A stretch of 62,080 bases of DNA, filler included, from Stramenopiles sp. TOSAG23-6 (GCA_900128565.1; 16 parts of 16 records of this genome joined end to end with filler, not necessarily neighbours in it), one strand, 5' to 3'; shown: positions 71 through 62,080, counted from the whole stretch's first letter. Notes: generated from the sequence alone by a model not told the origin. Made by a program: numbers and translations.

Positions 71-1193
71 ATTTAAAGCATCTACAACAGTAACAAGAGT
101 ATCTAATGAAGCATAATTAGACAATGATTTCAATTCAGTTTCTGCAACAATTAGTTTTTTAACACCATTTTCAGTATGCTGATGATTCTGTGTCGTGAAA
201 AAAAACAAAATTCAAAAAATTGTCAAAATTTGTTAGGTACAAAATTTACTACAAAAAAAAATTTCAAAAAAAAATTTCAAAAAAAAATTATGAAAACAAA
301 CATCATCAACATCCATCACAAACGTCTGAGCCACTGGGAGTGGTTCACTAATACCGGTAGATTCGATGACAAGGTAATCATGTTTGTGACAAAATATTCA
401 GAATAGTAGATATATAAATATGTGTTTTTATGAAGAATGAAACAAATACTCAAAAAGAAGAAAAAAATACAAAAAAAAAATCCGAAATTTGTTAGGTACA
501 AAATTTCGTACGAAATTGTTGTAGACGTACATATTTGTTCTCAAGACTGAGACTTTTTACAGTCTTTAGCAAATCACCACGTAAAGTGCAACAAATACAA
601 CCATTGTGCATTTCAACCATTTCTGATTCTTCATGGATAAGCTTAGAATCTTTAATTTCATCTGCGTCAAGGTTGATTTCTCCCATATCGTTTACAATGA
701 CTGCAATTTTCAATTTCTCATTGTTGGGTAAATGATCATTCAATCGAAGAATCCGCTTCAATAAAGTTGTCTTTCCAGCACCAAGAAATCCAGAGAGAAC
801 AGTCACTTGGAGTTTTTTTACTGTTTCGATGATGACGCTCACCTCAGGCCTTTCCAGTTTTTGCATTTTTGACTGTTCATCTGCACTTAACTTGGCAAAA
901 GCTTCTGCACAAACGTCATACGTATCATCATCTCCTTCGCTGCGCGTATAACGAGTTCCTACAATAGGAGTCATATCCGTTACGTCACAATGTACACCGA
1001 TATGCACAGAGTCTCGCAACGCTTCATATACACGTTTGTATTGTCTTGGGGTTAGATTAGCAATATCGCAGGCATTTTTTTCATCGGTGTTCATTACAAA
1101 AGCAGAAACTACCGGCTTGTTTGTTTCCAGCAAAGTTGAATTTGTATTCCCACGCAGGCTACCAGATAAGTTAGATTTAACGTTGCTCACCAT
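71..1193 (-). CDS. CobW/ZNG1 (COG0523) metallochaperone GTPase, 3' truncated; exons 1193-531, 379-302, 187-71
   Basis: [33 protein letters not shown]; after splicing [24 protein letters not shown] and [10 protein letters not shown]. Confidence 0.92.
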
Positions 1194-1404
1194 TGTTGAT
1201 ACTGTGCCACGGACAAAAGTAAATAGTAGTATAATGTAGTTAGTAATGGTACAATATATGCAAGCCCAAAAACACAATTCTCAAAAAAAATACTACGTAG
1301 GATAAAAAAGAGTCAGCAAAAATCGTATACAAATATCCTAAATAAATCGACACATTTCGTACTTTTTATTTTCGAATCTCAAAAGTTTTATATGACCAAA
1401 GATA

Positions 1405-2821
1405 ATGATGCAGTTATCATGCAATTTGACAACTCGATTAATATCCACAACTAGATTTCATTGGAGAATACAACCCTTTACAAAACAGACTCAATTGAAA
1501 ACGTGTAAATACTTTACAAGTATAGCCAATAGTACATCCAATAGTACATCCACTGCTAAAGCGGAAACAAATACAAATCCATTTGCCTCATTTCGGAAGT
1601 TAGGAGTGTCACCGGAACTTGCCGATGGTTTGGCCAATTTAGACATAGCAAGTGACTCCTTACCAACACACATCCAAAAAGAATGCTTTGAAGTGATATT
1701 GTCTGGTAAGAATGTTGTATTGGGTGCAGAAACAGGTTCTGGAAAAACACTGGGTTATCTCATGCCAGTCATACAACGTTTGAAAGATCAACAATTACAC
1801 GGTAACGGAAGAGCTGCGCCTAAGCGTCCACATGTGATTGTCCTAACTCCTAGTCGAGAACTTTCACAACAAGTTTTTCAAGTTGCAAAAACTCTCTCTC
1901 ATTCCGCTCGATATCGTTGTGGTCTTGCGATTGGTGGTCAAAAAATGAACAAAAACGTTAAAAAGTTAATGTCAGGTGTTGATGTCCTCGTATCCAATCC
2001 AGGTAGAGTTAAAAAATTATGGGATAATGACGCACTGTATTTTTCACATGTTGAATGTGTTATAATTGATGAAGCAGATACGTTGTTGACAGAGGGATTT
2101 CAAGACGAGTTGGATTCACTTTTTAATTCACTTCAATCGCGTGCGATGCGTGGTGGTTCAGCATGTCAATATATTCTCGTAGGTGCCTCATTTTCTTCAT
2201 CTGTTCAGAAAGTTTTAAAGAAAAATTTTGTAGATTTGATTCATATTTCTTCTCCAAGTCTACACTATTTACCAAAGGGTTTACAACAGAAATTTATTAG
2301 ACCAAATGCAAATGATAAATATCCTATGTTATTAGAAGTACTTGGTTTGAATTCAAATGAAACAAATGAAACAAATGAAACAAATAAAACAAATAAAACA
2401 AATAAAACAAATAAAACAAATAAAACAAAAAACAAAACAAATAACATGAAAGAGGTTCTTCAGCCTACTATAGTATTTTGTAATAGTATCGATAGTTGTA
2501 GAGCAACTGAATATGCTTTAAGTGAAGCTGGATTTCACACGTCAGGCTTACATGTATGTTTCATTTTTTTAACAAAAAAATCGAAATTTTTTTTTTCGTA
2601 CGAAATTTTGTACCTAACAAATTTTTTAGATTTTTTTTGAAATATTTTTCCAAAATACATGGGGGGATTCCTCCACGCCTTCGACAAGATAATTACAATA
2701 ATTTTATTTTAGGAATGTCCACAATTTTAGTTGCAACAGATGTCGCTTCTCGTGGATTGGACCTTCCTAGTGTTACAAGAGTTGTAAACTTTGATTTCCC
2801 ACGTACAAGTGCCGAGTATAT
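1405..2821 (+). CDS. DEAD-box RNA helicase, probably organelle-targeted; exons 1405-2553, 2661-2821; motif VI missing
   Basis: Q motif, AETGSGKT, PSREL, DEAD, ATDVASRGLD; GLH|GGIP restored by removing 2554-2660. Confidence 0.92.
2554..2660 (+). mobile_element. Type copy of the Introner-like GT..AT intron family (about 65-70 copies in the window)
   Basis: GTATGTTT..TTTTCGTACGAAATTTTGTACCTAAC..GAAATATTTTTCCAAAATACAT; TACATG at both junctions; no AG near the 3' end; removal restores the helicase frame. Confidence 0.9.
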
Positions 2822-2942
2822 GTATGTTTTATTTTTTTTTTTTTTTCGGTAAAAAAAAAATCGATTTTTTTTTTTTTGGTAAAAAAATTTTGCACCTAAC
2901 AAATTTTTTTAGATTTTTTTGAAATATTTTTCCAAAATATAT

Positions 2943-3712: not shown

Positions 3713-3800
3713 GTATGTTTTATTTTTTTTTACAAAAAAATCGTTTTTTTTTTCGTACGCAATTTTGTACCTAACAAATTTAAGTTTTTTTTTTTGAAAT

Positions 3801-3900: not shown

Positions 3901-3988
3901 AAAATATTTCAAAAAAAAACTAAAATTTGTTAGGTACAAAATTTTTATAAAAAAATAAATTCGAATTTGAAAAAAAAATAAAACATAC

Positions 3989-6771
3989 ATGTAAGGACTT
4001 CCACATCAGAAGATGCTGAATTTGTTCGAACTGATTTATTAAAAACTGAGATATCAAAACTACCAATTACACTAGGATTGAATAGGCTTGGTGCTGATAC
4101 TTGACTTGAAGAATATTTAGAGTCTTTGTCTATATAGTCTATAGAATGATCTACACTAGAAGATTCAAATGCCGAACTTAAATTTTCTACCAATGGTGGA
4201 TTTATATGAAGACAGTGCCACGTATGAATACTTCCATCTCCGGCCAAATCACGAGAAGAACCATGTATTGTGAAAAAATATTTCGAAAAAAAAACTAAAA
4301 TTTGTTAGGTACAAAATTTCGTACGAAAAAAAAATTGAAATTTTGAAATTGCGAAAACGTACACGAATCATTTGAGGTTTATAATGATTACTACTGTCTG
4401 TAACATCATCATCTTTATAATTATTTACGTTATTTTTCGTATTACTTTGAGTTAAGACTAATATCATATGATTAATAGAATTGATCCATGAACGCGCCTC
4501 ACCGACTGTTTTTGCTCGGAGAGTCAATTTCTTACCATCAATATTCAGCACAAATGTGCCTTTCTTTTTTTCTTCATCTTGGCATGATAAAACACTAGTT
4601 CCTCCACTACCATCTGCAAAATAAACATTTTTTATAGAACCGGATTTTTCTAATAAACGAAGATCAACTTGAGTTTTGGCATACGAAAATATTCCTCCAC
4701 AGTATACTGTAGATTTCGTTAAAGACGCATGAGCCCGAAAGCGAAGTTGACAAAAACGTCGTTCCCAAGTAAGCATCCCATATCGCCAAGATCGTTTCCA
4801 GAGAAAGCCTTTATTCAATATTTGTTCATGTGAAGACGTTTCAACATCTTTTTTCTCTGAGGGAGGACTATGAGACATGGAATTAGGGTTAGGGTTAGGG
4901 TTAGGCCGAAGATTTGTCCCGGATCCAAACCACTTGAAGCGTATACTTATTTTATGATCTAGATCACTTAGATTTTCTGATTTTTTATTTTTTTCTGAAT
5001 TTTTATTTACGTTTACATGCATTTCAATGATACATCGTTCGTAATCTCTACCATTAGCTGATAATTTAAACATCGGTCCTGATATTATTTGTGATTGAAG
5101 AATAGGTACTGAATGCGACATCATCGAATCTATACTATATTTTGTATTACTTTTAATGAGTTTGTTGTAATCATTATATGGTATAGTATGTGTAGTATTT
5201 GGTGATAATCTCGAAGGAATTAAAACACTAAAATATTCTGGCATTTCGTTTTTTTCTCCTTTCATTAGGGTTAGGGTTTTTTTTGTTGGTTGCATTGGCA
5301 TAGAAAAGCGTAACAAAGGAACTAGATCTCTTATTCTTTGTTTTTGTTTTCGTTTCAAAACCGTATGTATTTTGGAAAAATATTTGAAATATTTTTCGTT
5401 AGGTACAAAATTTCGTACGAAAAAAAAACTTCGAATTTGAAAAAAAATAAAACATACATTGGTATCATTATGGACTTCGTTTGCTTCTTTCGATGAAGTT
5501 GTTGAAGAATTATATGTAGGTTGTTTTGTGTGTAGATTATTAGGGTTAGGGTTTCTTTCACTCCATAAATATAAATCAAGAATTGCACCAGGTGGAATTT
5601 TCGAACATGGTAAAACACAATCAAAAGACTGAAAACGGTTACATCCACTTCCTCGAAGATGACTTTCATGAAATCCACAAAACAATTCACCACCATGTAT
5701 TGTGAACAAATATTTTTTTTTTTTTTTTGTAAAATTTGTTAGGTACGGAATTTCGTACGAAAACCAAAAAAAAATCGATTTTTTTGTTTAAAAAAAAAAA
5801 TAAAACATATATATCGAAGTTCAGGTCGAACCATTATTGGATTTTGGATCACTGAATCTGTACCAAATTTTGTACCTAACGAATTTTGTTTTTTTTGGAT
5901 TGAATCTTTTTCTAGAGAGTCATTGCCATCAATACAAGTCACTTTAAAGCAATACGTGTATGTATTATGAAAAAATATTTTTAAAAATTGTTTTGTTATT
6001 AGGTACAAAATTTCGTACGAAAAAAAATAAGCAAAAAATAAATGAAAACGTACATGCATACTCTGTATTATTAATGTCATTTCCTATATCAGATTTTGAT
6101 AATGTTCTATCTCGAGGCATCAACAAACTACTGTCAGAACTACTATCTAAAATATTTGTAGTGACGGATAAATGTGAATTTGTACCAAATTTCGTACTTA
6201 ACGAACTTCGAATTTGCTGAGTGCCAACACCCTTAGAATTACCAAAAAAGTTTCGTTGATGTTTTAACTCCCTCTGAGAAGGAGATGAAGTCATTGTAGT
6301 TTCTGTAGGTGAAGTTCTTGTAGCTTTTCTAGGTGAAGTCATTGTAGCTTTTCTAGGTGAAGTCATTGTAGCTTTTCTAGGTGAAGTTATTGTGGCTTTT
6401 CTAGGTGAAGTTATTGTAGTTTTTCTAGGTGAAGAATATGTTGAAGTAGATAATGGTTTTCGAGGAGAAGATATTTCCGTTTTATCCCAAGAGCTTAAAC
6501 CAGTTTGAGTATTATAGTAATAGACGTTTCCTTTGCCATCATCACAAGGTACCCAGGCCGATTTCAAGCTTGTGCCATTTGTTCCAACAATCCTTGATTT
6601 ACTGGGCTTGGTCCATTGTGACTCTTGTGTTATAGTATTGTACCAATAATCATTATTCTGTTCATCTGTATATTTCACCCATTCTGAGTCAGCATAAGTA
6701 CTCTCACGAGCTGTATTTCTTGGCGATTTTTGGAATCCGTTAGTACTATGCACAGACTCTATCTGATACAT
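3989..6771 (-). CDS. Signalling protein with 2 WW domains, a PI3K-type C2-like region and a PH domain, 3' truncated; introns 5960-6053, 5695-5810, 5365-5457, 4263-4362
   Basis: WVKYTDEQNNDYWYNTITQESQWTKP; WVPCDDGKGNVYYYNTQTGLSSWDK; ELRY|GGELFCG; KGFLWKR..WERRFCQL..EARSWINSI. Confidence 0.78.
6283..6434 (-). repeat. Coding 24-bp tandem repeat (SPRKATxT, about 6 units)
   Basis: AGGTGAAGTCATTGTAGCTTTTCT units on the + strand. Confidence 0.9.
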
Positions 6772-7597: not shown

Positions 7598-8017
7598 GCA
7601 TGTTTTATTTTTATTTTTCAATTTTTTAGCTAAATATGTTTCATACGAAATTTTGTACCTAACAAATTTTTTTAGATTTTTTTTTGAAATATTTTTCCAA
7701 NNNNNNNNNNNNNNNNNNNNNNNNNNNNNNNNNNNNNNNNNNNNTTAATTAATTAANNNNNNNNNNNNNNNNNNNNNNNNNNNNNNNNNNNNNNNNNNNN
7801 AAAATAATGCAAGCAAAATTGGGAAAAATAAAAAAACAATGAAAAAATTAGNAAATAAATTTTATCATGGTATTATTCAAAAAAAACACGATTTTTTTTC
7901 CCCGAAAAAATCTAATTTCAGAATCCCAAAAATTTGAAAGTAATCGTCAAGTAGTACTAGTACTACGTAGTCAAAAAAAACAACCCAACACAGAGTCATC
8001 TTTCATTGAATCATTGA

Positions 8018-8760
8018 ATGAGATGGAGTAGTCATCGACAGTTGTGTACAATAATGACAGATCAAGTAGATAAACTTTACCCAGGAACAGCAGTGAAGCG
8101 TATGATGTCTGCTCGAGAGCGCGTTTGCTCATTTTCACCTGCTACACTTAGCAAAAGTTGGCAAGAAGTGAGACGAAGTCTATTATGGGCCGCTGGATTG
8201 AAAGATTTACCAACAGCGAGACCAGGTATGGGTTATACGGGGCATAGTTTTAATGATTGGAATCATGTAGATGCAACATGTATGCTTGGTAAAGTAACAC
8301 ATTTTGAGAATAATGGCGAAGTTCAAGGAATAGCTCTTGGTAATCGTCTTGGAAGAGGTATAGAAGTCGCTTCAATCAAAGAATTAGGCCCAGGAGGTTC
8401 ATGGAGTACCTGCATGCAAGGATGTTCTCATGAACCTCCAGCCGATGTGGCACACATACAATTTAAGTCTCGCATTGCGTTTAAGCTTGTTTGGTGTCCT
8501 CCGAACTACAAGCAATTTATACTCTGTGATGATGAAGGTACGTTTTTTTCTTTTTTTTTTTTCATTTTTCTTTTCATACGAAAATTTGTACCTAACAATT
8601 TTTTTAGAATTTTTTTGAAATATTGTCTTTTACTTTAGGACATTTTCTCAACTTTGGTGCACCTACTGGAACACTTCCTCATATAAGAGAACGTGAGAGG
8701 AACTTTAAACATGTTGAAGGTAGCAAGTATGCAAAAGAAGCGTTTGAAAGACATCCGTAA
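8018..8760 (+). CDS. Uncharacterised protein; exons 8018(or 8054)-8537, 8639-8760
   Basis: Clean ORF (PGMGYTGHSFNDWNHVDATCM, GPGGSWSTC); element copy 8538-8638 has canonical GT-AG ends. Confidence 0.7.
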
Positions 8761-9693: not shown

Positions 9694-10549
9694 TTATTCG
9701 TCTAAATCATAATCAATAATATCATTGACGTCTTGCCATGAATATTTTATATAACTTTGTCTCCAATATATTACATTGTCCATGTATTGTGAAAAATGTT
9801 ACTTTGTAGTGCAAAAATTTGTTAGTATAAAATTTTCAGGAAAAAAAAAATAAAAAATCATTTTTGAAAACGTACACCGCATCTCTCATAGCAACTAATG
9901 CATCACTGGCTGGATTGCTTCGTAAGTATTGCTGTAGCGTTGCTATTGCATTATTACCGTTGCCCTTGAAAATGATCCCTGAATCGAATGTCTGAAAAAC
10001 CTTATCAATAGCGTAAAAAAGTGTGTCAGATGGAGGCTTGGCAGGGTAGAAGTTGTCCATCTTGTCGTACACATCCTTAGCCTTGATATATGCATCAAAT
10101 ATTTTGTTGACCTCATCATCAATGAAATTCCTCATTTCTTCTGTGTCTGCACAAGATTCCACTATCCCAAACACGCTTAAAGGACATTTCTCTTGAACTT
10201 TGTTTAAAAGGTCAGGCAATGTTGATCCAGTTACGTCTGTGAGTTGTGCGGCGAGTGGTTGTAGTTCGACATTGAGCGCATCATTTTTTTGTTGCCAATG
10301 TTTCCTATCAAGACGAAACTGTTCTTGTTGTTGTTTTTGTTGTATTTGCCAATCGTTAAACTTACTTCGAAGGTTTCCGACGCGAGTACGTACTACGTCG
10401 GCAGCGGAGTCATACAATTGTTGAATGCGAGCAGAGTTTTCGGGAAGAGATGCTGCTGCGTAAGCAGCAAGAGCAGCAGCAGCTCGTGGAGCATATTGTG
10501 ATGCTAAATTAACAGCTACGGTTGCTGGATCTGAAGTTGCTACTGACAT
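9694..10549 (-). CDS. Hypothetical protein; intron 9782-9875 (GT..AT)
   Basis: Long ORF from ATG; short terminal exon ends in TAA. Confidence 0.55.
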
Positions 10550-15594: not shown

Positions 15595-15648
<54 letters not shown>

Positions 15649-15673
15649 TGAAATTTAAATGACAAAAACGTAC

Positions 15674-16245
15674 ATCATTCTTTCATGATCTTTAGATGTT
15701 TTCTGTCGAGGTGGATCAATATATATTTTCCGCCACATCGAAGCTTCTAAAGCAGTTTTTGTATAATTTCTATTTTTTGTATAATTTCTATTTTTATTCT
15801 TGCTAGGGTTAGGGTTATTCGAATATTCTCCTAAAATTTCAGCACATTTTTTATTCTGTGACATCGAGGCTAATGCTATTGGAGTTCTTCCTTGACTATC
15901 TACTATATGTGGACTTACAGCAGATTGTAAAAGAAGTGTCGTTGAGTTTTGCCAACCTTTATAGGCAGCAACATGTATTGTGAAAAAAAAAAAAAATTTT
16001 GTAATTTTTTTTGTTAGGTACAAAATTTCGTACGAAAAAAAAATAAAAATTTTACTCAAAAAAAAAAAAAAAAAATTGAAAATAATGATGAAAATATACA
16101 TGTAATGGTGTTCTTCCTTCCGCATCGGCTAGTTCAAGTGTAACTCCAGCAATATCTGATAAAAGCCCAAGACATTCAACTGTATTGTAAAACAATATTT
16201 TTGTTTTGTTTGTAAAAAACATCGTTAGGTACAAAATTTCATACT

Positions 16246-16276
<31 letters not shown>

Positions 16277-17148
16277 GTAAAAAAAAATTTTTTTTTAAAA
16301 AAAAAAAATCATAATGTCATAATGATAAGATACATGCATCACCATGTGACATGGCTACATGTGCAACATTATTTCCAGCTTCATTCACAACAAATGGATC
16401 AGCCCCATTTATTGTACAAAATATTTCCAGAATTTTTTTTTTGTTAGGTATGAAATTTTGTATGAAAAAAAAAATGTTTTTCAATTTTTTTCAATTTTTT
16501 TCAATTTTGAAAACGTATATTATCAAATAAAATTTCCATTGCTTTTGCATTACCAGAAGCAGCAGCAGCAAATAAATGTTCTGTTAAATCAATAATTTCA
16601 CGAGGTGTGTTATATAGTGTATTGTAGTTGTAGTTATAGTTATTGTGCTGACTAGAATTAGTGTAGTTCTGATGACTGTTGTTTTGATGTTTTTGTTGAT
16701 TTTGTTGATTTTGATGTTTTTTTTGATGATTTTGGTACGGATAGGAGATTTCATTCTGAGTGATTGGTATATGAAAAGAATTCCCAGAGGAGTAACCATG
16801 TCCTAGTGGAGGTGGTGGTGGGACTATAAGGGATTGTGATTGAGATGTTCTTGTTTGGTGACTTCTTTGACTACGTCTAATTAATGTATTTTGTGGTGGA
16901 GGTGGCGGAGGTACAAACGAATTGAAATCTGAACTTGAAAATTTGACGTCTTTTTTCATATTGTTGACAATCTCTTCATCCACGATATTATTATACATAT
17001 TACTATTGGATTTTGGAGTGGTAGAACGAAGCCAGTGAATGGGTAACTCATCCTCTATCGAAGTTTGTTTTGTTTTCTTTTTTGATTTTTTTGACCTTTT
17101 TTGAGATTGTCTTCGTCTCGAACGTCTTGATAATCGACTTCCTATCAT
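15674..17148 (-). CDS. Ankyrin-repeat protein, 3' truncated; introns 16407-16518, 16180-16333, 15973-16099
   Basis: Spliced: LFDN|GADPFVVNEAGNNVAHVA, GRTPLH|VAAYKG, DSQGRTPIALA. Confidence 0.85.
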
Positions 17149-17631: not shown

Positions 17632-19286
17632 ATGGATGCAGTATTTATAGGCTCACCAGTGAAAGTCACTGTACCAGCAGGAAAAAAACTAGGTATTGCC
17701 ATACAGCCAGGATGTAGCGATAATACGGGTTGTATTGTACATGCGTTTCGCCCTATATCAAGAGATCACATGGGCCCAATTGAGAGTTCTAACCGAGTCG
17801 TTGTTGGAATGTGGCTCGTAGAAATTAATGGAAAAAGTACAATGACGGAAGACTTCGATTTGATTGTAAACTTGTTGACACAATCAATTAATATTGATCG
17901 CATTCTCTTATTTGATAAGCTTCAGTTACGTGAAAATTTGCATATTACAGACAAGATGACGAATATATTGAATACTAATAGTAATAGTAATAGTAATACT
18001 AATACTAATAGTTATACTAATGGTAATACTAATAGTAATGGTAATACTAATAGTAATACTAAAAGTAATGCTGCGATACATGTAAACATTGATGAAAGTC
18101 ACCAAGTGGCAAAAACTGCATTAATCAGTCATTCAACATACATTGTTTGGGCAACTGCATTTCTTGGTGTGGGTAATTTGGGTGTCCATTTTGAAGTCCA
18201 TGGTGGTTCTTCAAGTTTAGTTGTCATGTTTAATAAAGACAATGAACATCATCTTCATCATCATCATCATCAAGAGGAAGGACATAGTAACCCTAACCCT
18301 AACCCTATAAGTAGTAATCCAAACACTCTTCAAAATATGAAAATATTAAGACATTCAGGTGTACGTACAGGAATGTTTCTAGTTCGAATCGATGATCAAA
18401 ATGTCTCTGAATTATGTAAAACACTTAAAATACCTAAAAAAAATGAAAATTCTAAAAAAATTGAAAATTCTAAAAAAATTGAAAATTCTAAAAAAATTNA
18501 AAATTCTAAAAAAAATGAAAATTCTACCCAAACTAAATCCATTCCGTCATTACAGTGGGTATTACAATTACTAGAAAGTAAAAAAACATCAAACAAAAGA
18601 TTAACTTTTTGTAGTGCTCCAAATGATTTTATTGCTCATGTACGTTTTATATGAATTTCTAATTTATTTCCAAAAAAAGATTTCATACGAAATTTTGTAC
18701 CTAACCAATTTAAAAATTTTTTTTTTGAAATATTTTTCCAAAATACATATTCATTTACAATCGTTTGCATTATCTGAACGAAATGCAATTATCCTAATAC
18801 AAAAATTAGTTCGTGGTATCCTCACTAGAACACGAATTCAAGAGAAAATTTTAGCAGCCCGTCGACAACATCAACTACAAGTATTAAAAAAAAAATGGGC
18901 TACTTATAGTATAGATAAGATAGGACACAAACACGAAATACACGAAATACACGAAATATCTTCTGAATCCAAGGATGTTTCTAAGGATCATCAAAAGAGT
19001 TATACGAAGGATAATGCTATTTGTGGAAACCCTAACCCTAATACACAAAATAGTACAGTATTACATCTACAGAAACATTCCATATCGAATTTGAAAAATA
19101 TTTTTGAGTTCCCTAACCCTAACCCTAATTCAACATCAAATTTGAAAGACATTTTTGAGTGCAGTCATTGTCATTATAAACTGAATCCAAATACTGGATT
19201 ATTTTATAACCCTAACCCTAACCCTCAAATATTGTCCACAAAATTATCAAGAGCTAAACATATATATCAAATGAAACAAAGAAAAT
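17632..19286 (+). CDS. PDZ-like and IQ-motif protein, 3' truncated; intron 18640-18748
   Basis: GKKLGIAI..VGMWLVEING; GNLGVHF..GMFLVRIDD; IQKLVRGILTR. Confidence 0.65.
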
Positions 19287-19547
19287 GTATGTTTTATTTT
19301 TTTTTTTAACAAAAAAATCGATTTTTTTTTTTACAAAAATTTTGTACCTAACAAATTTTTTTAGATTTTTTTTGAAATATTTTTCCAAAANNNNNNNNNN
19401 NNNNNNNNNNNNNNNNNNNNNNNNNNNNNNNNNNTTAATTAATTAANNNNNNNNNNNNNNNNNNNNNNNNNNNNNNNNNNNNNNNNNNNNAATTTTGTAC
19501 CTAACAAATTTTAGTTTTTTTTTTTCAAATATTTTTCCAAAAAGCAT

Positions 19548-20172: not shown

Positions 20173-20275
20173 GTATGTTTTATTTTTTTTCAAATTTGAT
20201 TTTTTTTTGTACGAAATTTTGTACCTAACAAAAAAAGTTTTTAGATTTTTTTTGAAATATTTTTCCAAAATACAT

Positions 20276-23282: not shown

Positions 23283-23437
23283 NNNNNNNNNNNNNNNNNN
23301 NNNNNNNNNNNNNNNNNNNNNNNNNNTTAATTAATTAANNNNNNNNNNNNNNNNNNNNNNNNNNNNNNNNNNNNNNNNNNNNTTTGTACCTAACAATTTT
23401 TTTAAGATTTTTTTTGAAATATTTTTCCAAAATACAT

Positions 23438-42522: not shown

Positions 42523-42634
42523 GTACGTTTTTATTCTACTTTTGAATATAATTTTTTTTTTTTTTTTTTTTTTTTTTTGTAAAAAAAAAATTTTTCCTAA
42601 AAATTTTTTTTTTTTTTTAAAAATTTTTTCCCCA

Positions 42635-42665
<31 letters not shown>

Positions 42666-42868
42666 GGTAAAAAAAAAAATTTTTCCTAACAATTTTTTTT
42701 TTTCATAGTAAATTTNNNNNNNNNNNNNNNNNNNNNNNNNNNNNNNNNNNNNNNNNNNNTTAATTAATTAANNNNNNNNNNNNNNNNNNNNNNNNNNNNN
42801 NNNNNNNNNNNNNNNTTTGTACCTAACAAATTTAAGTTTTTTTTTTGAAATATTTTTCCAAAATACAT

Positions 42869-46814: not shown

Positions 46815-47846
46815 AGCAGTAAGTAAACTTTCAGAGCGTTGAGCTGCTTCATTATGAAAAACAAGATCAGGATGTACACAATCTACAATTGTCAATGCTT
46901 CTTCATTTGTAATATCTTCCATAGTGGTATGAGTCATCCATGAGATGTACTGTGAAAAAATATATACATAATTTTTTTTTAAATTTTCAAAAAATTTAAA
47001 AAAAAATTTAAAAAAAATTTAAAAAAAATTTAAAAAAAATTAAAATCATTAGGGTTAGGGTTATACCATACACAGATTTTCTAATTACTCTAGGTTTCTT
47101 CCATACAACATAACTTGCACCTGAACTTTTAGATCCATCAACACCAAGACAAAGTGATCGCATTAAGTAGTTACGGTTAGAGATTCGTTGTACCATTCCA
47201 AAAAAACTATTTATTTTTGAAAAATATTTCAAAAAAAAATTAAAAAAATTGTTAGGTACGAAATTTCCTACAAAAAAAAAAAAAAAAAAATTGAAAAAAA
47301 AAAACATACATCGATTCCCTTACCCCAATTAGCTGACATTGAGTATGGTTTTGCTCCAGCTAATGTGCAACGATTACGGATGAATAGACCGGCATCATAA
47401 CCAGCTTTGGCTTTTCCACCTTTGATTTCTCCAAAAGCAATGGTAAATGGTTTCGTATTCTTTGGTTTTTTCAATGCACGTTTCTCAGCTGCACGTTTTT
47501 TTGCAGCAATGGCATTTTGCGTTTCCGGGGATACTAGAAAAATAGTGACCCAACTATCATTGTCACAGTTACCATCATCACCACTCCAGAAGGGTGGTTC
47601 GTCTCCTGTAGTGCCCCAAGATGCCCAATCGTCGAAGTGATCAGACTGGTTACGTGCTACTATAGCAGCCGCGACTGCCTCTTCGCGAGTTGCGTGACTG
47701 GACAATGTCGTAGTGTCTGTCATTTCTTCTCGATCTTCTTCTGACATATTATAATTACAGCCATAGCTAGACGGACCTTCCGTGCAACGTAATAACCATT
47801 TGGTGGTAGTCATTGGGTCTGTCTCTTTTCTCTTGAGCGTTCCCAT
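46815..47846 (-). CDS. Hypothetical protein, 3' truncated; introns 47209-47309, 46945-47071
   Basis: Frame stays open only with ..AT 3' ends. Confidence 0.6.
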
Positions 47847-49596: not shown

Positions 49597-50444
49597 ATGG
49601 AAAAGCAATCAATTTCTCGACGTAAACAATCAAGACCAGTAAAGAAACACAAACTTTATGCTCCTTCTACTCGTTCATCATCAGCATCTGCAGTAGCTAT
49701 ATTAGCCCTACAAGGATTGCGGTCTGGTATGGAAGACGTGTATGACATTGTCGAAGATGACTCCGTCTCAAATTTATCAGAAGTTGGTGCAAAGTATTAT
49801 GCAGTGTATGATGGTCATGGAGGTAGACTTGCTGCTGAATTTTGTTCCAAACATCTTTTACAAACAATAGTAAGTCAACCTGAATTCGTCAAGGAAGCCA
49901 ACAATTCAACTAGTTTTTATACTAATTCTGCTAAACACTCAAAAAACACAAAAAACACAAAAAAGCGAAAAAGAAATTCGAAACAAGATGAAACCAATTA
50001 CAACCAAAATTACTTTTTCCGTGCAGTGACGAGAGGCTTCTTAGAAGTTGATCAAAAGTTTTGTGAACTAGCTACACAAGAACAACTCGTTGATGGTACA
50101 ACGGCAACGTCAGCTTTTGTATTTAATAGTCATATCGTTGTTGCAAACGTGGGTGATTCAAGAGCCATTTTAGTCAAAAATAATGGTCAAGTACGTTTTC
50201 AATTTTTTTTTCATTTTTTTTTTCGTACGAAATTTCGTACCTAACAATTTTTTTTTTTTTTTTTTGAAATATTTTTTCATACTACAAGTGAAATGCCTCT
50301 CTACTGATCACAAACCTGAAACTGAAGGAGAGACTGAACGTATCATCAAAATGGGAGGTACAGTGACGTATAAAAATGGTATTTCACGTGTTAGTTCAAT
50401 GCTTGCGATTACACGCGCTGTTGGTGATGCAGAATTGAAACCAT
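49597..50444 (+). CDS. Protein phosphatase 2C, 3' truncated; intron 50191-50287 (GT..AA)
   Basis: QGLRSGMED, AVYDGHGG, DGTTA, ANVGDSRA, LSTDHKP, LAITRAVGD. Confidence 0.94.
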
Positions 50445-50624
50445 GTACGTTTTGTTTTGACATTTTGAAAGNNNNNNNNNNNNNNNNNNNNNNNNNNNNN
50501 NNNNNNNNNNNNNNNTTAATTAATTAANNNNNNNNNNNNNNNNNNNNNNNNNNNNNNNNNNNNNNNNNNNNACGAAATTTTGTACCTAACGATTTTTTTT
50601 TTGAAATATTTTTCCAAAATACGT

Positions 50625-51838: not shown

Positions 51839-53561
51839 ATGAAAATACTGAACTTTCTTGGGCCTCCTGAGCATCCTTCTCGCTCCCTGACATCTATATT
51901 TCATAACGTTTTCTGGGGTTCATTAATATTACAGCTGACAAACGTTATCTTTATATCTAGTTTTGCTAAATCTGATGTGTTAAAATCTGCGTCATGGGTT
52001 GTTTTATGTTCGTATTTACTTCAAATTCCTCAAGTTTTGGCTGCTTTATTTGGGAACTATTTTTTAATGAGATACTTAAACTATGCAACTTTAAAGGATT
52101 CGTGTTACATGTACATGAGTACAGTATTAGGGTTTTCAGGTGTGTATTATGCTTTACACATGTCACTTCCAAGAACCGAAAGTTTCGAGTCGAATGATCC
52201 ATATGTTTTTGAAGACCACCCGATATATCTATTTGTTACTATGTTTTATATGTCCGTGCAAACTCAAACTCTTTGTGGAATAGGGGACTTTTCTCCTGTC
52301 GGAATTGTACCAGAGCTAGTTTCGACTTTACAAATGCTTTGCGGAATTTATTATGCAGTTTTTATAATATCCCACACACAAGGACTGTTTAATCGATACC
52401 AGGAAGATTACGTTGAGGAGTCTTTTTCTACAACTTCCGAAGCTCAAGATTTTTTCTCGAAATGCAGGAAATGTTGCTCAAATAATCGGACTATCCATTC
52501 AGTACGAGTTTTTATGAGGACTTACTTATTGCTTATTAGTTTATTTATCTACGGATCAAATCTCATCTTACTTCAACGGGTATGTTGTAGTCGTCATTTT
52601 TTTTTTCGTACGAAATTCCGTACCTAACGATTTTTTTTAGAATTTTTTTTCACAATATATCTACGACCCAACGTGTTACACGACACTGAATATAAATATA
52701 GTGTTATTTTTATGGAGATTATTTTCCAAAGTCTTCAAATTTCAATTGTGTTGATTTCATCCTGGAAATTTACTCGTCATATTGAAGAAATTTCAATTAC
52801 TTTTCTAATGCAAGCCTTTGTTGCTACATGTACGTTTTCATCAAGATTTTTTTTTATTTTTTTTATTTTTATTTTTTTTTTATAGTAAATTTTGTACCTA
52901 AACAAAAAAGTTTTTTTTTTGTTTTTTGAAACTTACCTATTCTTTCATGTACTAAAGCATTCCCAAAATTGATATATTTTTTCACCATACTTGTGTAACG
53001 TTTTCAGGGCTTTATAATGTTGTATTTTTATTTAGCCCAATAGGTGATCCAAGTTTTTCTTTACCTTTACATAAAAGTGGAGGTAATGATCAATTCATTG
53101 TCAACATTAGCGAACTTTTCTTTTTTTCTGTTGGTACACAAACAGCGACTGGATTTGGGAATGTCTATCCTAGGAAGTGGTTTACTAGATTATTAGTTAG
53201 TGTGCAAATGCTTATTTCAGTTGTTTTTATAGTCGTTATTATGGGACGTGGTGTAAGTACCCTTCAAGACCGAAGAGCAATGGAGTTACAATTGGAATAT
53301 AATCATTTGAATGAGCGCGATTTGGAAATGGAAAACTCGTTTCATGATTCTATTAAGTCTGACGGTAATTTTCGAGACACGATATCTTATCAACAAAGAG
53401 CTCGTGAAGATTCAAATACATCGTGGAGTCGACATTCAAAAGCATCCTCTAAAATATCAGTCAAACATTTTCTACCCATAGACCATACTCAAAAAGATGA
53501 AGTTGATGCTGCAAACAACCATGGGAATATACTAGGAGGAGGCGGAGAATATCACTTTTAA
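51839..53561 (+). CDS. Ion-channel-like protein with two K-channel-type pore modules; introns 52580-52660 and about 52830-52992
   Basis: FYMSVQTQTLCGIGDFSP and FFFSVGTQTATGFGNVYP with flanking TM helices. Confidence 0.75.
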
Positions 53562-54445: not shown

Positions 54446-57400
54446 TTATTGATGTGCTTATATACAATGAAAATTTGAATGTTCGCAGTCTTGTCGCAGA
54501 TACGCTGAAAGATGCTTGTTCTCGATCAACGCGTTGTTTTCATTTTGTATTTGAGAATTTAACGTCTGAACTCCAACATCTTGATATGCTATGCCCAACT
54601 TCAGCAGAGTTTTTTTCATTACTTCAGCATCTTGGTGGGAAATCATCTCTTGCTGATTCTGAGCCTTTAGCTGCGACTTTATGTGAACGTTTAATTTCAT
54701 TTCCTCGGGATGCCGATGTACCATCTTCTACATCTGTGGCTATTACAATTGCTCCACGATCACATTTGATGTCTCCTTCATTGCCAATGTTATCCTCGAG
54801 TTTGCCAGGACGTGTCAGTACCTCAACTTCAGACTCCGAAGGTAGCGACCACGTGAATGAGTTAAGTGAAGAAAATCGATGTGTTGTTCCATTTCTAGTT
54901 GGTGCTCTTCAGATACTTCGATCCTTATGCTTACGTCAGTCTGGTGTAGTTAGTGTCAGTTTTGCGAAGTTTCTATTTGAAGAATTTTTGTTTTCTGTTC
55001 CATCACCGACGAATAAATCATATTGGCCTGTGTGTCGCACCCCTCAAACAAGACGTGCTGCATTTCAACTTCTTGGTACACTTCAAAAAAGCTCTGTAGA
55101 AATATTGACAGTTACATCCTCACTTGCGCTTGAACTTGTCAACAATGTTGCAAAATCATTGAATGATACATGGGATTTCGTGCCTTGTACGGAGCTTCGA
55201 GGAAGTCATTTATTTTCAGGCCTTCATAACCAAGGATGTACATGTTACATAAATTCACTCGTTCAACTACTTTTTATGACGAAAGCGTTTAGTCGTGGTA
55301 TCATGAAATCATGTTCAAGTATCCCTCATCAGAATGTATCAACCTTATCAGAGTATGATGGATTATGCTCTGGTGCTGACTTGGTGGGTAGACGAGTATT
55401 GATTCTATGGGAAAGTGGACATAAATATTATGCTAGGGTAGAGCGCTATATTCCATATGCAAGTGGAAAACCGGGAGGAAATCATTATATACAATATGAT
55501 GATGGAAATATATCACTATACGATATGTCGATTGGACGAAGTGGATTTGAAACGTCTACATTTCATGTTTTACCTAAATGCATTGACGAAGAAGATGGTG
55601 GTGCATTGTTTATGCGTCAAGTTCAAAGGACATTTCATTTTCTATCAGATAGTGTTTTAACTGCATTTGATCCTGTAGATTTAGTTGAATCGTGTAAAAT
55701 TTTGAACCTCAACTATAATGTACATCAACAAAACGATGCCGCAGAGTTCTTGGATAAAGTCCTTGGTGCCATTGATGACCATTTGAAAAAAAAAGGTAAG
55801 CCAAAGAATAGTTCTATTCCAAGAAATCATGTGTATGATTGTTTTGCTGTAAGTCTAGTTAAACAAAAAATCCCACACGGTTGTCCCAAGGCTCATATAG
55901 TGGAAAGAGAGGAGATTTATTTGCGCTTAGAGATGGATATTCGAGATAAAAGTAGTCTTGAAGATGCTTTAATGGCGTATACAATGGGAGAGGAAATGAC
56001 TGGGGACAACAAAGTTTTATGTGATATGTATGTTTTATTTTTTTTCAATTTCGAATTTATTTTTCGTACGAAAGTTTGTACCTAACGATTTTGAAATATT
56101 TTTCTAAAATATATGTGTGGTGAGAAAAAAAATGTTACTCTTCGCTCTGCATTTGGGAAACTTCCGAATACCCTATTAGTTCATTTAAAGCGTTTTGATC
56201 TTGATTTTACAACATTTGAACCTGTTAAATTGAATAATCGCATCGACTTCCCAGTTCGACTTAATATGAAACCGTATACGAAGGAAGGAATTGCAGAACG
56301 CGAAGCTCCACAAAGTTCACCAACATCTCCTGTAGGTTCGGATACATCGAAGGGTGATTGTGAAAATGATTCATTGAATGATGTAAATGATCTCTTGGAT
56401 TATGAATATGAATTGAGTGGTGTATTGATTCATTCTGGTGTTGCTCAAGGTGGCCATTATTATTCATTTATCAAAGACAAGGAGAGAAGTGAAAGAACTG
56501 TTGTATCCCTTCCATGCGGATCTTCAAATGACACTGGTGATTCTAATGATAATATATATTGGGATGAAGGTATCTGGTTTCGTTTTGATGATGATCGTGT
56601 TAGTCCGTTTGATGCGAAAGATATCGACCTTGAGTGTTTTGGAGGTGTTTCAACACGTAAAATTCGCGAACTTGATGGTGGTAAATACGTGGATCGAGTA
56701 ATTCAATTGCCACGGACTTCTAATGCTCTTATTATATTTTATGATAAGATTCTTCCCACCCCTCCCACAGAAGAAGATACAGTAGAAGAGAATCGACATA
56801 GAAGTGATAGTGCTAAATCACCATGTAATAAAACTCAGAAATCTTTACTTGAGAAAAAAATGGCAAACACGAAATTGCATAATGAGTCATTGAAAAGTAG
56901 AACGTTGATACCAAATGGAAGTGTCATCTCAGATAAACCTGAACCTGTTGATTATTTTTTAAAAGAAGTTTGGGAGAACAATCAAATGTTAATACGAAAT
57001 GCTTATGTACTAAGCCCAGATTTTCATAGTTTACTCTTCTCCATGTTAAATGCTCCAAATGAATTAATATATGATAGTACAAAATCTATTGAGAAACCTG
57101 ATGTGAACAAGCCCCCACCATTACCATCTAACATAAATAATAACAACTTTTCTAAGTTGACTATTTCAACTGAAACACTAAAAAACGATAAGGGAAATAC
57201 CGGTAAAGAAATATGTAATGATACTGAGTTTCTCTTAGTAAAATTAGGCACCATGTTTTTTTTAGATACTATTCTCCATGCGGCAAATAAAGTTGACATG
57301 GGTAATAATCTTCCGTCTCTAATTAGGTTATACGAAAGAAATCCAGCGTGTTGTCGATGGTTACTAGAAAAATTGATCTCTTGCGAAAGTTCAGAAGATT

Positions 57401-58213: not shown

Positions 58214-58364
58214 NNNNNNNNNNNNNNNNNNNNNNNNNNNNNNNNNNNNNNNNNNNNTTAATTAATTAANNNNNNNNNNNNNNNNNNNNNNNNNNNNNNN
58301 NNNNNNNNNNNNNACAAAATTTCGTACGAAAAAAAATTCGAATTTGAAAAAAAATAAAACATAC

Positions 58365-59476: not shown

Positions 59477-59496
59477 GATTTTCCGGAATAAGTACA

Positions 59497-60718
59497 ATGC
59501 AACATGAAATATTGCTGGCCCTTTTGGGTCACTCTGGCGAAGTGATTGTTGATCATGGAAACACCAAGGGTTTCAAAGTAGTTTCAAACTTACCTTTTCT
59601 CGCGACATCTGACCAAGAACTGATCAACCGCATTGTTAAGTGCGGGTGGCATTTCCGTGAACTAACACAGTTTATTAAATGTAACCGCGAGTATGAAAGA
59701 GGTATACCTGTTTCAGGACTATATTTGAGAGCATTTTGTGTGGGTTTAGAAAGTGTTTTGGATGACTATCGTAAGTTAATTGTTGCAGCAGAAGAAACTT
59801 TCCTGGAGGAATCTGAGCTCCCAATTGTAAAGTTATATCAACTTCTTCACGACTATAGTGTCATATTACCGGCACTTCACCGCATCATAAAACAACTAAA
59901 GAAAGATAAAATAAAGGGCCTCCAAATAGTAAATCTCTTGCACAAGGAATCTATGTGTGGATTTCCAATTTTTGAGACATGCATGGTTCGTTTGCTAGGA
60001 GGATGTCTTGGCGTCCTTTTTAACCAAATTCTTGCTTGGTGTGTGCACGGTATTCTTGTTGATAACTACGGAGAATTTTTTATTATGGAGCGACATGGTC
60101 CACCATCTCGGTCTAATGCTCCAGATGCACTTGTTGCTGAACATGAGTGGACAGCCAGTTTTAAAATTCGTTATACAATGGTGTACGTTTTCATCAATTT
60201 TTTCCCCTATATTTTGTTTCGTACGAAATTTTGTACCTAACGAATTTTTATCAAAAAAAATCCCAAATTACATGCCACACGATTTTCTGCCTACTTCAGT
60301 TGCCGAACACGTATTATTCATCGGCAAAGCTGTTCGCGTTTTAAAACGTTGTGGAAACACATCAACACCTCAAAACCGTCAAAATATGCCATCGAATGTA
60401 AATGAGACATCTACTTTATCCATTGAAGATGAAATGAAATTTACAAAAGTGCTACTAAAGCTTCGGTCTGATGCTGCTCTCTCCAATTCAAACTCTAAAA
60501 GTCTTTTTGACACTAGTATGAAGAGTAAGAATGATGCGCAACTCAATGTATTGCAAATTGAACATACTGTTGAAGCACTCCGAGTATCCATTGCAAAAAA
60601 ATTGCTTCACTTGGTTGTAAAAGACGCCGAATTGTTTCGAGTCCTCGCCTTAATTCGGCAATATTTTCTTTTGGGAGATGGTCATTTTTATCAAGAGTTC
60701 GTATCCAGTAGTCGAAGT
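59497..60718 (+). CDS. TUBGCP4: Gamma-tubulin complex component 4, partial; intron 60183-60273
   Basis: MQHEILLALLGHSG, GLYLRAFCVGL, DNYGEFFI, VAEHVLFIGKAV, YFLLGDGHFYQEF. Confidence 0.88.
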
Positions 60719-61252
60719 NNNNNNNNNNNNNNNNNNCCGAACATGATATAAAACTCGGTGCTTGGCAAAATGCTGCGTATTCTACTGGTCTTTTCTCCAG
60801 AACTAGTACAAATATAGAAAATAGAAATAGACATGTCGCTTTAGGGTTAGAATCAGAATTTGGATTTGGTATTTACGCAAAAGATATATCCCCTGTAAGA
60901 TCCAAAGAAAATATTTCTGAAAATGTTAATTATTTAAATCCTGAAAATGCTAAACATCCTGAAAATATCAATCATTATGGAATCATCGATTCCGAACACG
61001 AATATTCTCGAATGTTTGGGGATGAAAATATAAGTTCGTGTGTAGGAACTAGAATAAAAAAAGGGGTGAAAGATCAGCGAGAGTNNNNNNNNNNNNNNNN
61101 NNNNNNNNNNNNNNNNNNNNNNNNNNNNNNNNNNNNNNNNNNNNNNNNNNNNNNNNNNNNNNNNNNNNNNNNNNNNNNNNNNNNNNNNNNNNNNNNNNNN
61201 NNNNNTAACAAATTTTAGTTTTTTTTTTTTGAAATATTTTTCCAAAATACAC

Positions 61253-61977
61253 TTACTTCTCATCGGGTCAGCAGCGCATTTTATAGGCCATTCTGAAACG
61301 ACTGATGAAAAATCAGGAAATGAAAATGTTTTGACATCAAATATTGAAAGTGGGTGTAATACATTAGTAGAGGGTTGTCTGAATAATAGTGTACATACTA
61401 CGAATGATTCGCTAAGTAGTACGACTATAACTGATAATAATTTATTAGATATTCAGAGTGAAACTCCTGCGCTTCTGATTGCTACCCCACCTGCTACTGT
61501 CAACGGTATTTGGCTATCTGGTGCTGTATGGACATCATCCAAAAAAAGAATTACTTCTGGTTTTGAAACAACTTTTTGTTTTTCGGCTGGGACATCTGGT
61601 GTTGCATTTGTTGTACAGAATAATAGAGCTACAGCACTTGGAGAATACTCTGAAGGGGAAGTAAATGAGGATAGTCAAAAATCTGATGCTTATGCTTTAG
61701 GCCATAATATCCCACGATCTGTTGCAATATTATTTCAACTAACGTCTGAAGGTGGGATGAGGGTATCCATTCGTTCTGTTAGTAAAGAAAAAATATCTGT
61801 TGATTTACCTTCTGAAATGTTTGTTGTATCAGAAACTCAACAAAATAGTATTGATTGTCAGTCACAAGTAGAGTATACAATTCGAGTAAAATATATGTAT
61901 GGAGCTGAAAGAAAATGGTGTCTAAAAGTATTTATTAATGACCTACCTGACCCTGTTCTTTGTCACCATATTGACAT
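61253..61977 (+). CDS. Exon encoding an L-type lectin/ConA-like domain
   Basis: GAVWT..GFETTFCF..GVAFVVQN..LGHNIPRSVAILF. Confidence 0.6.
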
Positions 61978-62080
61978 GTTTGTTTCAATGATAAATTTCA
62001 AATATTGTTTTTTCATACGAAATTCTGTACCTAACGATTTTCTTTTTGAAATATTTTTTCATCATACATGATGCTGTTGA

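Follow-up and report, generated by a model that had tools for sequence, protein, structure and literature searches.

We describe a family of short repeated elements in a window of 62,080 nucleotides (nt) from Stramenopiles sp. TOSAG23-6 (GCA_900128565.1), the window being the whole stretch of DNA that was analysed, made up of 16 whole contigs of 3,767-3,800 nt each, ordered by length and separated by N/TTAATTAATTAA/N spacers. The reading of these elements as a new, high-copy, introner-like family of introns from a marine, probably stramenopile, protist is well supported. The elements are related copies in the sense orientation of genes, their removal at exact borders restores those genes, and a natural intron-less allele has those same borders. 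The terminal AG of introns is among the most constant signals in eukaryotic gene expression, and most of these copies end in AT. The best explanation, and in our judgement a probable one, is that they are introner-like introns removed from precursor messenger RNA (pre-mRNA) by the major spliceosome, from the G at +1 to the last letter of a 12-nt motif.

A repeated family of sense-oriented elements

An nhmmer profile built from 17 full copies gave 65 matches at E<0.01 (62 without overlaps), distributed over 15 of the 16 contigs, with none in contig 4 (11698-15494). The anchor GYACCTAA aligned 55 sites with plainly related flanks, and a scan for donor-like 5' sites added about 8 introns of the same build that the profile had missed. 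Relative to the flanking reading frames, 46 of the 62 elements are sense, 3 antisense and 13 undecided (P=3e-11). The elements are 81-155 nt long (median 103), differ pairwise by 5-20%, and occur at about 1 per kilobase (kb) of gene sequence. Two of the antisense matches are core fragments in frame within coding exons and the third is intergenic. The two fragments (5858-5912 and 6178-6211) encode ..L(G/S)TKFGT.. peptides in minus-strand genes, and look like old antisense insertions turned coding sequence.

With ^ marking the borders, the consensus from 35 copies reads ..(C)AT^GTAYGTTTT(A/C)..T-rich..TTTCGTACGAAATTTTGTACCTAAC..T-rich..TTCAMAATACAT^(G/A).. In the donor logo of these 35 copies, +1 is G in 32, +2 T in 34, +3 A in 34, +4 Y in 33, +5 G in 31 and +6 T in 35, and a CTAAC-like branch motif was found in 36 of 37 curated copies. 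The initial annotation had proposed a repeated, sense-oriented family in 15 of the 16 contigs that retains a U2-like donor and a CTAAC branch, and both proposals are borne out. A 22-nt core, CGTACGAAATTTYGTACCTAAC, occurs 17 times compared with 0 in 100 shuffles, and a 12-nt perfect palindrome within it, TTTCGTACGAAA, is present in 23 copies compared with a mean of 0.01 in shuffles (the core lies, for example, at 2594-2618). The element has inverted ends of about 6-9 nt, and a 6-base-pair hairpin (GUACGA/UUGUAC) is predicted immediately 5' of CUAAC in 5 of 6 folded copies. The hairpin or palindrome of the core could serve as a protein-binding site or aid the presentation of the branch site.

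When the core was searched for elsewhere, it was found in 0 viral contigs, 0 contigs of prokaryote genomes and 1 metagenome contig of the Joint Genome Institute. On that metagenome contig, L001, which is public and independent of the window, removal of the copy (CAT^GTATGT..CACAATACAT^GG) gives a 225-codon frame, with 178 codons before the junction and 46 after. Public data from 8 studies contain the elements in 15 runs. Of the 32 contig ends in the window, about half lie inside a copy (for example, 3713-3800, 3902-3988, 7598-7700, 19287-19390, 23383-23437, 42816-42868 and 58314-58364); this would be expected of a repeat that breaks the assembly, whose contiguity is thus limited by the family itself. 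At 35348, a short-chain-dehydrogenase-like exon (35051-35347) is joined through an element to an amino-acid-transporter-type membrane protein (35435 onward). This join is probably an assembly chimera through the repeat, and is a caution for all junction statistics drawn from such assemblies.

Removal of the elements restores genes

Of 35 copies, just 2 have a length divisible by 3 and also lack stops in the upstream frame, and copy lengths modulo 3 are distributed 10/15/10; the elements must, therefore, be removed if the genes are to be read. In a first test with consensus borders unadjusted, the longest flanking frames were in phase for 16 of 20 copies (P=2.5e-5 against a chance of one third). 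Among the curated complete copies, 35 of 42 were in phase by an automatic rule (P=3e-11, same chance), 2 of which passed only post hoc, with the 3' end moved 4 nt upstream. When the translations were read, copies 30569-30670, 35595-35703 and 35799-35905 proved to be in phase at the usual end in the evidently coding frame, and the pass at 35348 was withdrawn, as its flanks are apparently from different genes. A class of 3' ends lying 4 nt upstream, with three cases at first, was rejected in consequence: the usual end of 30569 is in phase, 35348 probably reflects a mis-join, and this leaves 2822 alone. Removal as GT..AT had earlier been said to restore six particular junctions (380-530, 2554-2660, 15973-16099, 24583-24723, 34620-34713 and 56028-56114), and all six are in phase.

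Protein profiles place the borders more finely. At the PP2C junction, exon 1 residue 136 aligns with profile position 131 and exon 2 residue 3 with position 135; the two intervening residues fit exactly, and Pfam positions 131, 132 and 133-135 are continuous across the border. The whole of helicase exon 2, first residue to last, aligns with Helicase_C positions 47-99, and in the next exon the residue number of helicase motif VI is right only with the intron end at 2938. The cobW and gamma-tubulin-complex Pfam profiles are likewise continuous to within one position across their junctions.

An alternative is that the elements are not removed at all, and are either insertions in decaying genes or artefacts of single-cell amplification or assembly. 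A fragmentary assembly that breaks at the repeat and holds at least one probable mis-join would fit such an account, as would the abundance of element-bearing contigs in RNA runs. Nevertheless, we regard it as extremely improbable, given the recurrence of the elements in 15 runs of 8 studies and in the independent public contig, the sense bias, and the fact that 33 of 35 copies would break the frame, although the frames beside them continue without stops for tens to hundreds of codons and agree with Pfam profiles.

Intron ends, 3' motif and register

Among the 37 resolved copies, the ends are GT..AT in 26, GT..AG in 6, AT..AT in 2, and GA..AT, AT..AC and GT..AA in 1 each. The last two letters are thus AT in 29 and AG in 6, and GT..AT alone accounts for 70%; the AG-ending share given previously, about 7 of 50, was right in proportion. 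At position -1, the logo of 35 copies has T in 27, G in 6, C in 1 and A in 1, whereas A at -2 was imposed when the ends were picked, so that nothing can be concluded from its constancy. Copies with AG have ATACAG or ATATAG at the very position where others read ATACAT. The constant feature at the 3' end is the 12-nt motif TTCAMAATACAT.

Simpler rules for the 3' end were considered and rejected. A nearby upstream AG as the true acceptor, an alternative that the initial annotation had raised, is excluded for most copies: of the 37 copies in the set at that stage of curation, 25 are free of AG from the CTAAC motif to the 3' end, and among the others a cut at the AG would leave a tail divisible by 3 in only 3 of 13 cases. 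A rule of the first AT after the branch fails because, wherever a CTAAC-type motif was recognised, 2-6 earlier ATs precede the used end (14 in 380-530, a long copy), and a fixed branch-to-end distance fails because the distance varies, being mostly 30-49 nt with a median of 40.5 nt.

The register of the borders is less straightforward. In 28 of 37 copies the element is preceded by an exon whose last two letters are AT, and these 28 give the same product whether they are read as GT..AT, TG..CA or AT..AC. In all, 32 of the 37 upstream exons finish with a T, which is unusual compared with the common ..AG^GT donor context; exon ends other than AT are mostly GT (4 of 9), and six AT-ending copies without an upstream AT (4263, 9782, 24927, 40615, 52580 and 60183) have GT, TG or GG there instead. 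Contigs from other loci in three runs are alike through the element's first base and those two letters, and then diverge (loose ends 5459). The direct repeat at the borders is mostly 2-3 nt, and a 3- or 4-nt target duplication is unsupported, as the -3 position matches in 15 of 28 AT-repeat copies, close to the share of roughly 40% that base frequencies would give. The shared AT may have arisen as a 2-nt target duplication or may reflect a preference for such sites, the two being indistinguishable here, and border repeats of this kind are treated as ambiguous in the introner literature as well (PMC9860276).

Were the cut sites 2 nt upstream, the same mRNA would result from AT..AC introns (ATGTAYGT...ATAC), a known non-canonical class. 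The shared AT of the 28 copies permits this, and one copy, ATACGT..ATACAC in the GT..AT register, has A first and C last, a pairing that is established in splicing. However, the GT..AT register is favoured because GTAYGT matches donor positions +1 to +6, because the six AT-ending copies without an upstream AT would start with GT, TG or GG if shifted, because copy 8538-8638 (AAG^GT..TTTAG) is only possible as GT..AG, and because an intron-less contig at 4263-4362 (CGT^GT..AT^GG) has the GT..AT product and not the -2 product. In addition, ATGTAYGT fits neither the U2 nor the U12 (ATATCCTT) consensus, and the branch motif is too far from the end for the U12 type. The AT..AC register is, in our view, very unlikely.

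The ends also have some capacity to pair, which raises the possibility of removal from RNA without the spliceosome, by a helix of both ends, cuts staggered by 2 nt and subsequent ligation, as proposed for the non-conventional introns of euglenids and diplonemids. For such introns, RNase III-type or tRNA-type routes have been proposed (PMC12621601). Exon AU plus GUAU can face AUACAU, with a mean of 3.4 contiguous pairs compared with 0.7 when 3' ends are shuffled and 5 or more contiguous pairs in 18 of 35 copies; of 6 folded copies, 3 have the terminal helix in their minimum-energy structure and a fourth has it in its centroid, and a 3' end other than AG would be in keeping with such a route. 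On the other hand, 9 of 35 copies have no pair in that register, compensating changes are absent (C at +4 faces A, T/A at -3 faces G at +1, and the copies with A at +1 face C/A), fold z-scores are only -0.6 to -2.2, and the conservation of GTAYGT and CTAAC far exceeds what pairing needs. Non-conventional introns are, moreover, defined by absent conserved borders and absent U1 complementarity (PMC6221363), the opposite of what is seen here. We consider this route unlikely, and the pairing of ends is taken to be a remnant of inverted terminal repeats, not a cutting guide.

Read evidence for an intron-less allele

Read evidence covers contig 2 only, of the 16 contigs. Run X3, whose library type is absent from its record, is probably a DNA run: its longest contig is 96 kb, compared with 12-32 kb in the RNA runs, and its depth is even, at 3-9 in every one of the 30 bins, even where a spacer separates two divergent genes. 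The RNA runs, by comparison, reach 12-22 bins. Its record 1 (1,463 nt, depth 6.3) maps to 4070-4261, 4362-5364 and 5458-5700 at adjacent record positions, joining 4261 to 4362 and 5364 to 5458 with zero letters between, and is therefore without 100 and 93 nt exactly at elements 4263-4362 and 5365-5457. Identity is about 99.5-99.7% in the first two exon pieces, and the alignment stops at 5700, inside element 5695-5810. X3 record 6 (depth 7.4) runs from an exon 66 nt into element 7598-7700, which is thus kept in X3; each locus in X3 has a single form, empty or filled. The gene is thus seen, in this allele, to function when precisely the GT..AT segment is missing. From RNA, X6 record 7 matches 3989-4085 without mismatch and then continues with 65 other letters from the exact donor of 3902-3988, consistent with a spliced transcript in which the following exon is located past the end of the contig. 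Protein searches for joined forms with exons 29892-30365 and 4363-5364 gave no matches, not even to the exons themselves, and so speak neither for nor against joining.

The initial annotation had named DNA without the elements as a sign of excision from DNA instead of splicing. In X3, which is probably DNA, two elements are missing in this way, whereas a third was kept and only one form was seen per locus, so the sign is there in part. DNA-level removal, by ciliate-like programmed excision or precise transposon excision with splice-like motifs incidental, would account for the precise absence of two elements from a DNA-like run and for element ends that have both inverted repeats and a direct repeat of 2 nt. 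At about 1 per kb, the elements are also roughly as dense as the eliminated sequences of Paramecium. Yet strand-specificity is not expected of DNA excision, and the elements are sense by 46 to 3; donor, branch motif and T tract are conserved, the elements are retained in the source assembly, and neither the standard genetic code nor the stramenopile-like proteins point to a ciliate. A mixture of germline and somatic DNA is unlikely as well, because both forms would be expected per locus and X3 has one (gene A empty, 7598-7700 filled). Removal at the DNA level thus seems highly improbable, and removal from RNA is favoured by the sense bias and by the conservation of donor, branch motif and T tract.

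The intron-less allele fits better with presence/absence variation, or with the loss of neighbouring introns through a complementary DNA (cDNA) copy, than with programmed DNA excision. Three independent recent insertions within 1.6 kb are unlikely, because exon divergence is about 0.3% compared with 5-20% between copies. If the allele arose via cDNA, it is a fossil of the spliced message.

A proposed mechanism and its significance

We postulate that each copy would present the major spliceosome with a standard donor, GTAYGTTTT, followed by a small conserved hairpin, the CTAAC branch motif and a T-rich tract. The 3' end would then be set by the extended motif and not by the first YAG, the last intron letter being T in approximately three quarters of the copies, G in roughly a sixth, and A or C rarely; a terminal G would, on this reading, be dispensable. 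The family may have spread as a DNA transposon with a 2-nt AT duplication, or by reverse splicing into ..AT^ sites. Removal at the RNA level, the spliceosome as its agent and these modes of spread are inferences, and altered recognition of the 3' splice site is a reasonable and plausible supposition.

A more far-reaching version can be offered tentatively, as one that may well be correct but that we stop just short of calling probable. Perhaps the major spliceosome of this organism has been re-specified to end introns at ..AATACAT, usually with a final U, a contact of G(+1) with U(-1) then taking the place of the universal G-G contact, and GT-AT has become the majority class genome-wide, spread by one introner family.

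Several points weigh against these proposals. We know of no model system in which U at -1 supports the second splicing step. The 28 copies that share the AT are ambiguous in register, 4 of the 42 complete copies are without settled ends (20005, 24163, 30368 and 35348), and copy 61978, at the window end, lies outside the phase test, so that 37 settled copies remain of 42; copy 2822 requires an AT 4 nt ahead of the usual end. The assembly is single-cell-like, breaks at the repeat and holds the probable mis-join through it at 35348. Among the RNA contigs listed for contig 2, none bridges a junction. Element-bearing contigs are, furthermore, abundant in three RNA runs (1,242-1,489 contigs), from which it follows that unspliced RNA or carried-over DNA is present there and that the elements may be retained in transcripts, and some RNA-run contigs go from an element start into unlike sequence (loose ends 5459: X7 8, X9 8). 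Finally, the joined form comes from X3, a DNA-like run without a recorded library type.

Known exceptions to a terminal AG are either rare classes or lineages in which both ends are diverse. If the re-specification is real, no earlier genome would match this one in having an acceptor that is non-AG and yet uniform and defined; the combination of a normal donor and branch with an AT end would provide a natural test of how the last nucleotide is read in the second splicing step, and a mobile element would be able to impose its own end on the host splicing system. Gene predictors that require AG, and annotation-based introner searches, would miss such genomes and mis-call nearly every gene, which bears on the gene catalogues drawn from marine single-cell and metagenome assemblies.

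Host organism and features of the window

The contigs are AT-rich and eukaryotic, with 27-42% G+C per 2 kb across the window, and use the standard genetic code, with open reading frames reaching 986 codons. A threonine dehydrogenase at 27340-28371 has its best named relatives among stramenopiles (54-58% identity), and against solved structures it scores 407 bits with 6jyg, which we take to be the oomycete enzyme, 325 with that of mouse and 262 with that of Trypanosoma brucei. Parts of contig 2 are present in 15 public runs from 8 studies, and those beyond the probable source study are labelled as seawater or marine metagenomes or metatranscriptomes. The host is read as a marine, probably heterotrophic, stramenopile-like protist, assembled from very little data. 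A diplonemid origin, suspected from the non-canonical introns reported in single-cell diplonemid genomes, is rejected on the relatives and structure scores of the threonine dehydrogenase. Rfam at gathering thresholds and a transfer RNA scan gave no matches in the window, and hence no candidate small nuclear RNA.

Contig 4, the sole contig without an element, carries an uninterrupted 986-codon PEP carboxylase gene and has a higher G+C of about 36-42% per 2 kb; one telomere-like run on it (11969-11980) indicates that it is probably from the same organism. Such (CCCTAA)2 runs number 25 in the window compared with 0 in shuffles (for example, 4883-4900 (-), 19111-19128 (+), 32555-32572 (+) and 41455-41472 (-)), and L001 has them at about 2290-2330. 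At the inspected sites CCCTAA is on the gene sense strand, and Asn-Pro runs are encoded in the coding frames read; CCCTAA-like runs also occur within introns and intergenically. Long repeats of low complexity, (NETNKT)n and (SNDL)n among them, are found in frame in many genes, at 2341-2440, 33600-33800, 18000-18300 and elsewhere. The individual element copies are listed in Table 1.

Table 1. Copies and fragments of the element family in the window (^, border; basis, evidence for the ends)
Position	Strand	Copy	Ends and remarks	Basis
188..301	-	complete	GT..AG, 114 nt, CobW-like gene	in phase
380..530	-	complete	GT..AT, 151 nt; cobW profile continues to within ~1 position	phase, Pfam
2554..2660	+	complete	GT..AT, DEAD-box helicase; downstream exon begins at Helicase_C position 47	phase, Pfam
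2822..2938	+	complete	GT..AT; sole in-phase AT, 4 nt short of usual end (2942); helicase motif VI count fits
3713..3800	+	5' part	AAT^GTATGT, truncated by contig end
3902..3988	-	5' part	CAT^GTATGT, truncated by contig end; X6 record 7 departs from genome at 3989
4263..4362	-	complete	CGT^GT..AT; missing from X3 record 1 (skip 4262-4361, same product)	phase, reads
5365..5457	-	complete	GT..AT, 93 nt; exactly missing from X3 record 1	phase, reads
5695..5810	-	complete	A at +1, ATATGT..ACAT	phase set
5858..5912	+	antisense core fragment	in frame in coding exon of minus-strand gene
5960..6053	-	complete	GT..AT	phase set
6178..6211	+	second antisense core fragment	in coding exon
7598..7700	+	5' part	GCATGT start, truncated by contig end; X3 record 6 extends 66 nt inside
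8538..8638	+	complete	AAG^GT..TTTAG, canonical ends	phase set
9782..9875	-	complete	GGT^GT..AT, TACTAAC branch motif	donor scan, phase set
15595..15673	-	5' part	GAT^GTACGT, truncated by contig end	donor scan
15973..16099	-	complete	GT..AT, within ankyrin repeat	phase, Pfam
16180..16333	-	complete	GT..AG, ATACAG at family's usual end	phase set
16407..16518	-	complete	A at +1, ATACGT..AAAT	phase set
18640..18748	+	complete	GT..AT	phase set
19287..19390	+	5' part	truncated by contig end
19491..19547	+	3' part	GCAT end, begins at contig end
19730..19841	+	complete	GT..AT (CCAT)	phase set
20005..20127	+	family-like intron	ends ambiguous: two tandem donors, ACAG end out of phase	donor scan
20173..20275	+	complete	GT..AT	phase set
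23383..23437	+	3' part	ACAT end, begins at contig end
24163..24277	+	intergenic	GT..AT
24583..24723	-	complete	GT..AT, core (TTTCGTACGAAATTTCGTACCTAACG..) twice in tandem	phase set
24927..25048	-	complete	GAATGT start, ACAT end	phase set
27094..27173	+	5' part	CGC^GTACGT, truncated by contig end
29795..29890	+	complete	GT..AT	phase set
30368..30463	+	copy	without in-phase AT or AG end	phase set, translations
30569..30670	+	complete	GT..AT, in phase in hydrophilic frame	translations
30992..31063	+	5' part	truncated by contig end
33190..33284	+	complete	GT..AG (ATACAG)	phase set
34153..34258	+	complete	ATACGT..ATACAC, A first and C last	phase set
34620..34713	+	complete	GT..AT	phase set
34874..34950	+	5' part	GAATGT start, truncated by contig end
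35348..35438	+	copy	flanks from apparently different genes; probable assembly join through repeat	translations
35595..35703	+	complete	GTTTGT..ATAT	translations
35799..35905	+	complete	GT..AT (TATAT)	translations
36054..36148	+	complete	GT..AT	phase set
36269..36367	+	complete	GT..AT	phase set
36491..36583	+	complete	GT..AT	phase set
40615..40715	+	complete	CGT^GTATAT..ATAT	phase set
40892..41046	+	complete	GT..AG (ATACAG)	phase set
41403..41557	+	complete	GT..AG (ATATAG)	donor scan, phase set
42276..42390	+	complete	GTAGGT..ACAT	phase set
42523..42715	+	5' part	long T/A runs, truncated by contig end	donor scan
42816..42868	+	3' part	ACAT end, begins at contig end
46695..46815	-	copy	GCT^GTATGT, extends into contig start, adjoins inverted core fragment
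47209..47309	-	complete	GT..AT (AAAT)	phase set
50191..50287	+	complete	CAA^GT..ACAA, PP2C gene; profile 131/132 then 133-135	phase, Pfam
50445..50471	+	5' part	truncated by contig end	donor scan
50572..50623	+	3' part	precise end ambiguous
52580..52660	+	complete	CGG^GT..ATAT, 81 nt	phase set
56028..56114	+	complete	GT..AT, ubiquitin hydrolase gene; flanking frames 526 + 699 codons	phase set
58314..58364	-	5' part	truncated by contig end
60183..60273	+	complete	GGT^GT..ACAT, gamma-tubulin complex gene; profile 223 then 227	phase, Pfam
61206..61252	+	3' part	follows N run
61978..62069	+	copy	GTTTGT..ACAT, at window end

Comparison with known systems

Of the features of U2-type introns, the elements have the donor (GTRNGT) and the branch (CTRAY) and lack the 3' YAG. 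U12-type introns have the donor ATATCCTT and a branch, TCCTTAAC, at 10-20 nt from the end, compared with GTAYGT and a median of 40.5 nt here. The last letter of an intron is read together with the first, the working pairs being G..G and A..C; this pairing was reportedly described by Parker and Siliciano in 1993, and is said to be seen in post-catalytic spliceosome structures of 2017. As in AT-AC introns, one copy here is A..C in the same register. In the literature outside subscription journals, we found no genome with GT-AT as a major class, nor with G..U as the main pair.

The internal eliminated sequences of Paramecium are likewise short, AT-rich, transposon-derived and precisely removed, occur at about 1 per kb in genes, and have a 2-nt repeat. 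However, they are bounded by TA, are removed from DNA, and have neither strand bias nor splice signals, whereas here the repeat is AT, the bias is 46 to 3 and X3 has one form per locus.

The non-conventional introns of euglenids and of hemistasiid and eupelagonemid diplonemids are similar in having pairable ends, a suspected transposon origin and marine flagellate hosts (PMC12621601, PMC6221363). They are without conserved borders or U1 complementarity (PMC12621601, PMC6221363), whereas borders are conserved here. Pairing of the ends is weak in our elements and absent in 9 of 35 copies, and the host is unlike Euglenozoa by its threonine dehydrogenase.

Non-canonical introns of Fritillaria borealis were reportedly described by Henriet in 2019. 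In this species, recognition of the 3' end has been re-specified via duplicated U2AF subunits (Soo et al. 2026, PMC13326754). Fritillaria is an animal in which both ends are diverse and the donor is non-canonical, whereas here only the last letter departs and the copies belong to one family.

The introner elements of Amoebophrya offer a closer parallel: they are repeated introns with inverted ends and short direct repeats that make the cut site ambiguous, and the majority have ends other than GT-AG (Farhat et al. 2021, PMC7789003). They have inverted repeats of 8-20 nt, direct repeats of 3-5 nt, no preferred end dinucleotides and no clear donor consensus (PMC7789003). In contrast, donor, branch and 12-nt 3' motif are strongly conserved here, one end pair dominates at 70%, and the direct repeat is mostly 2-3 nt.

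Introner families in protists were reportedly described by Huff et al. in 2016. They are now recorded in Micromonas, Aureococcus, Symbiodinium, Chrysochromulina and others (Gozashti et al. 2022, PMC9860276). Like the introners of that paper, our elements are many similar short introns at unrelated gene positions, AT-richer than exons, with short inverted ends and no coding capacity, in marine protists, and perhaps with presence/absence between close relatives, as introners have (PMC9860276). Some introner families carry the donor and take the acceptor from a duplicated target (same source). Here no duplication beyond the shared AT is demonstrable. Known introners end in AG (or AC), unlike the 29 of 37 copies that end in AT here. 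The largest introner survey, from 2025, accepted only AG and AC as familiar 3' ends and discarded others unless they were confirmed by transcripts (PMC12130899); annotation-based screens would miss the present introns. The family has many similar copies at unrelated loci, which are sense in genes and restore the frame when removed, and it may be mobile: X3 lacks two elements and has one at about 99.5-99.7% exon identity, which could reflect gain or loss. Thus, the family works like an introner and for the most part qualifies as one, with splicing predicted from its conserved signals.

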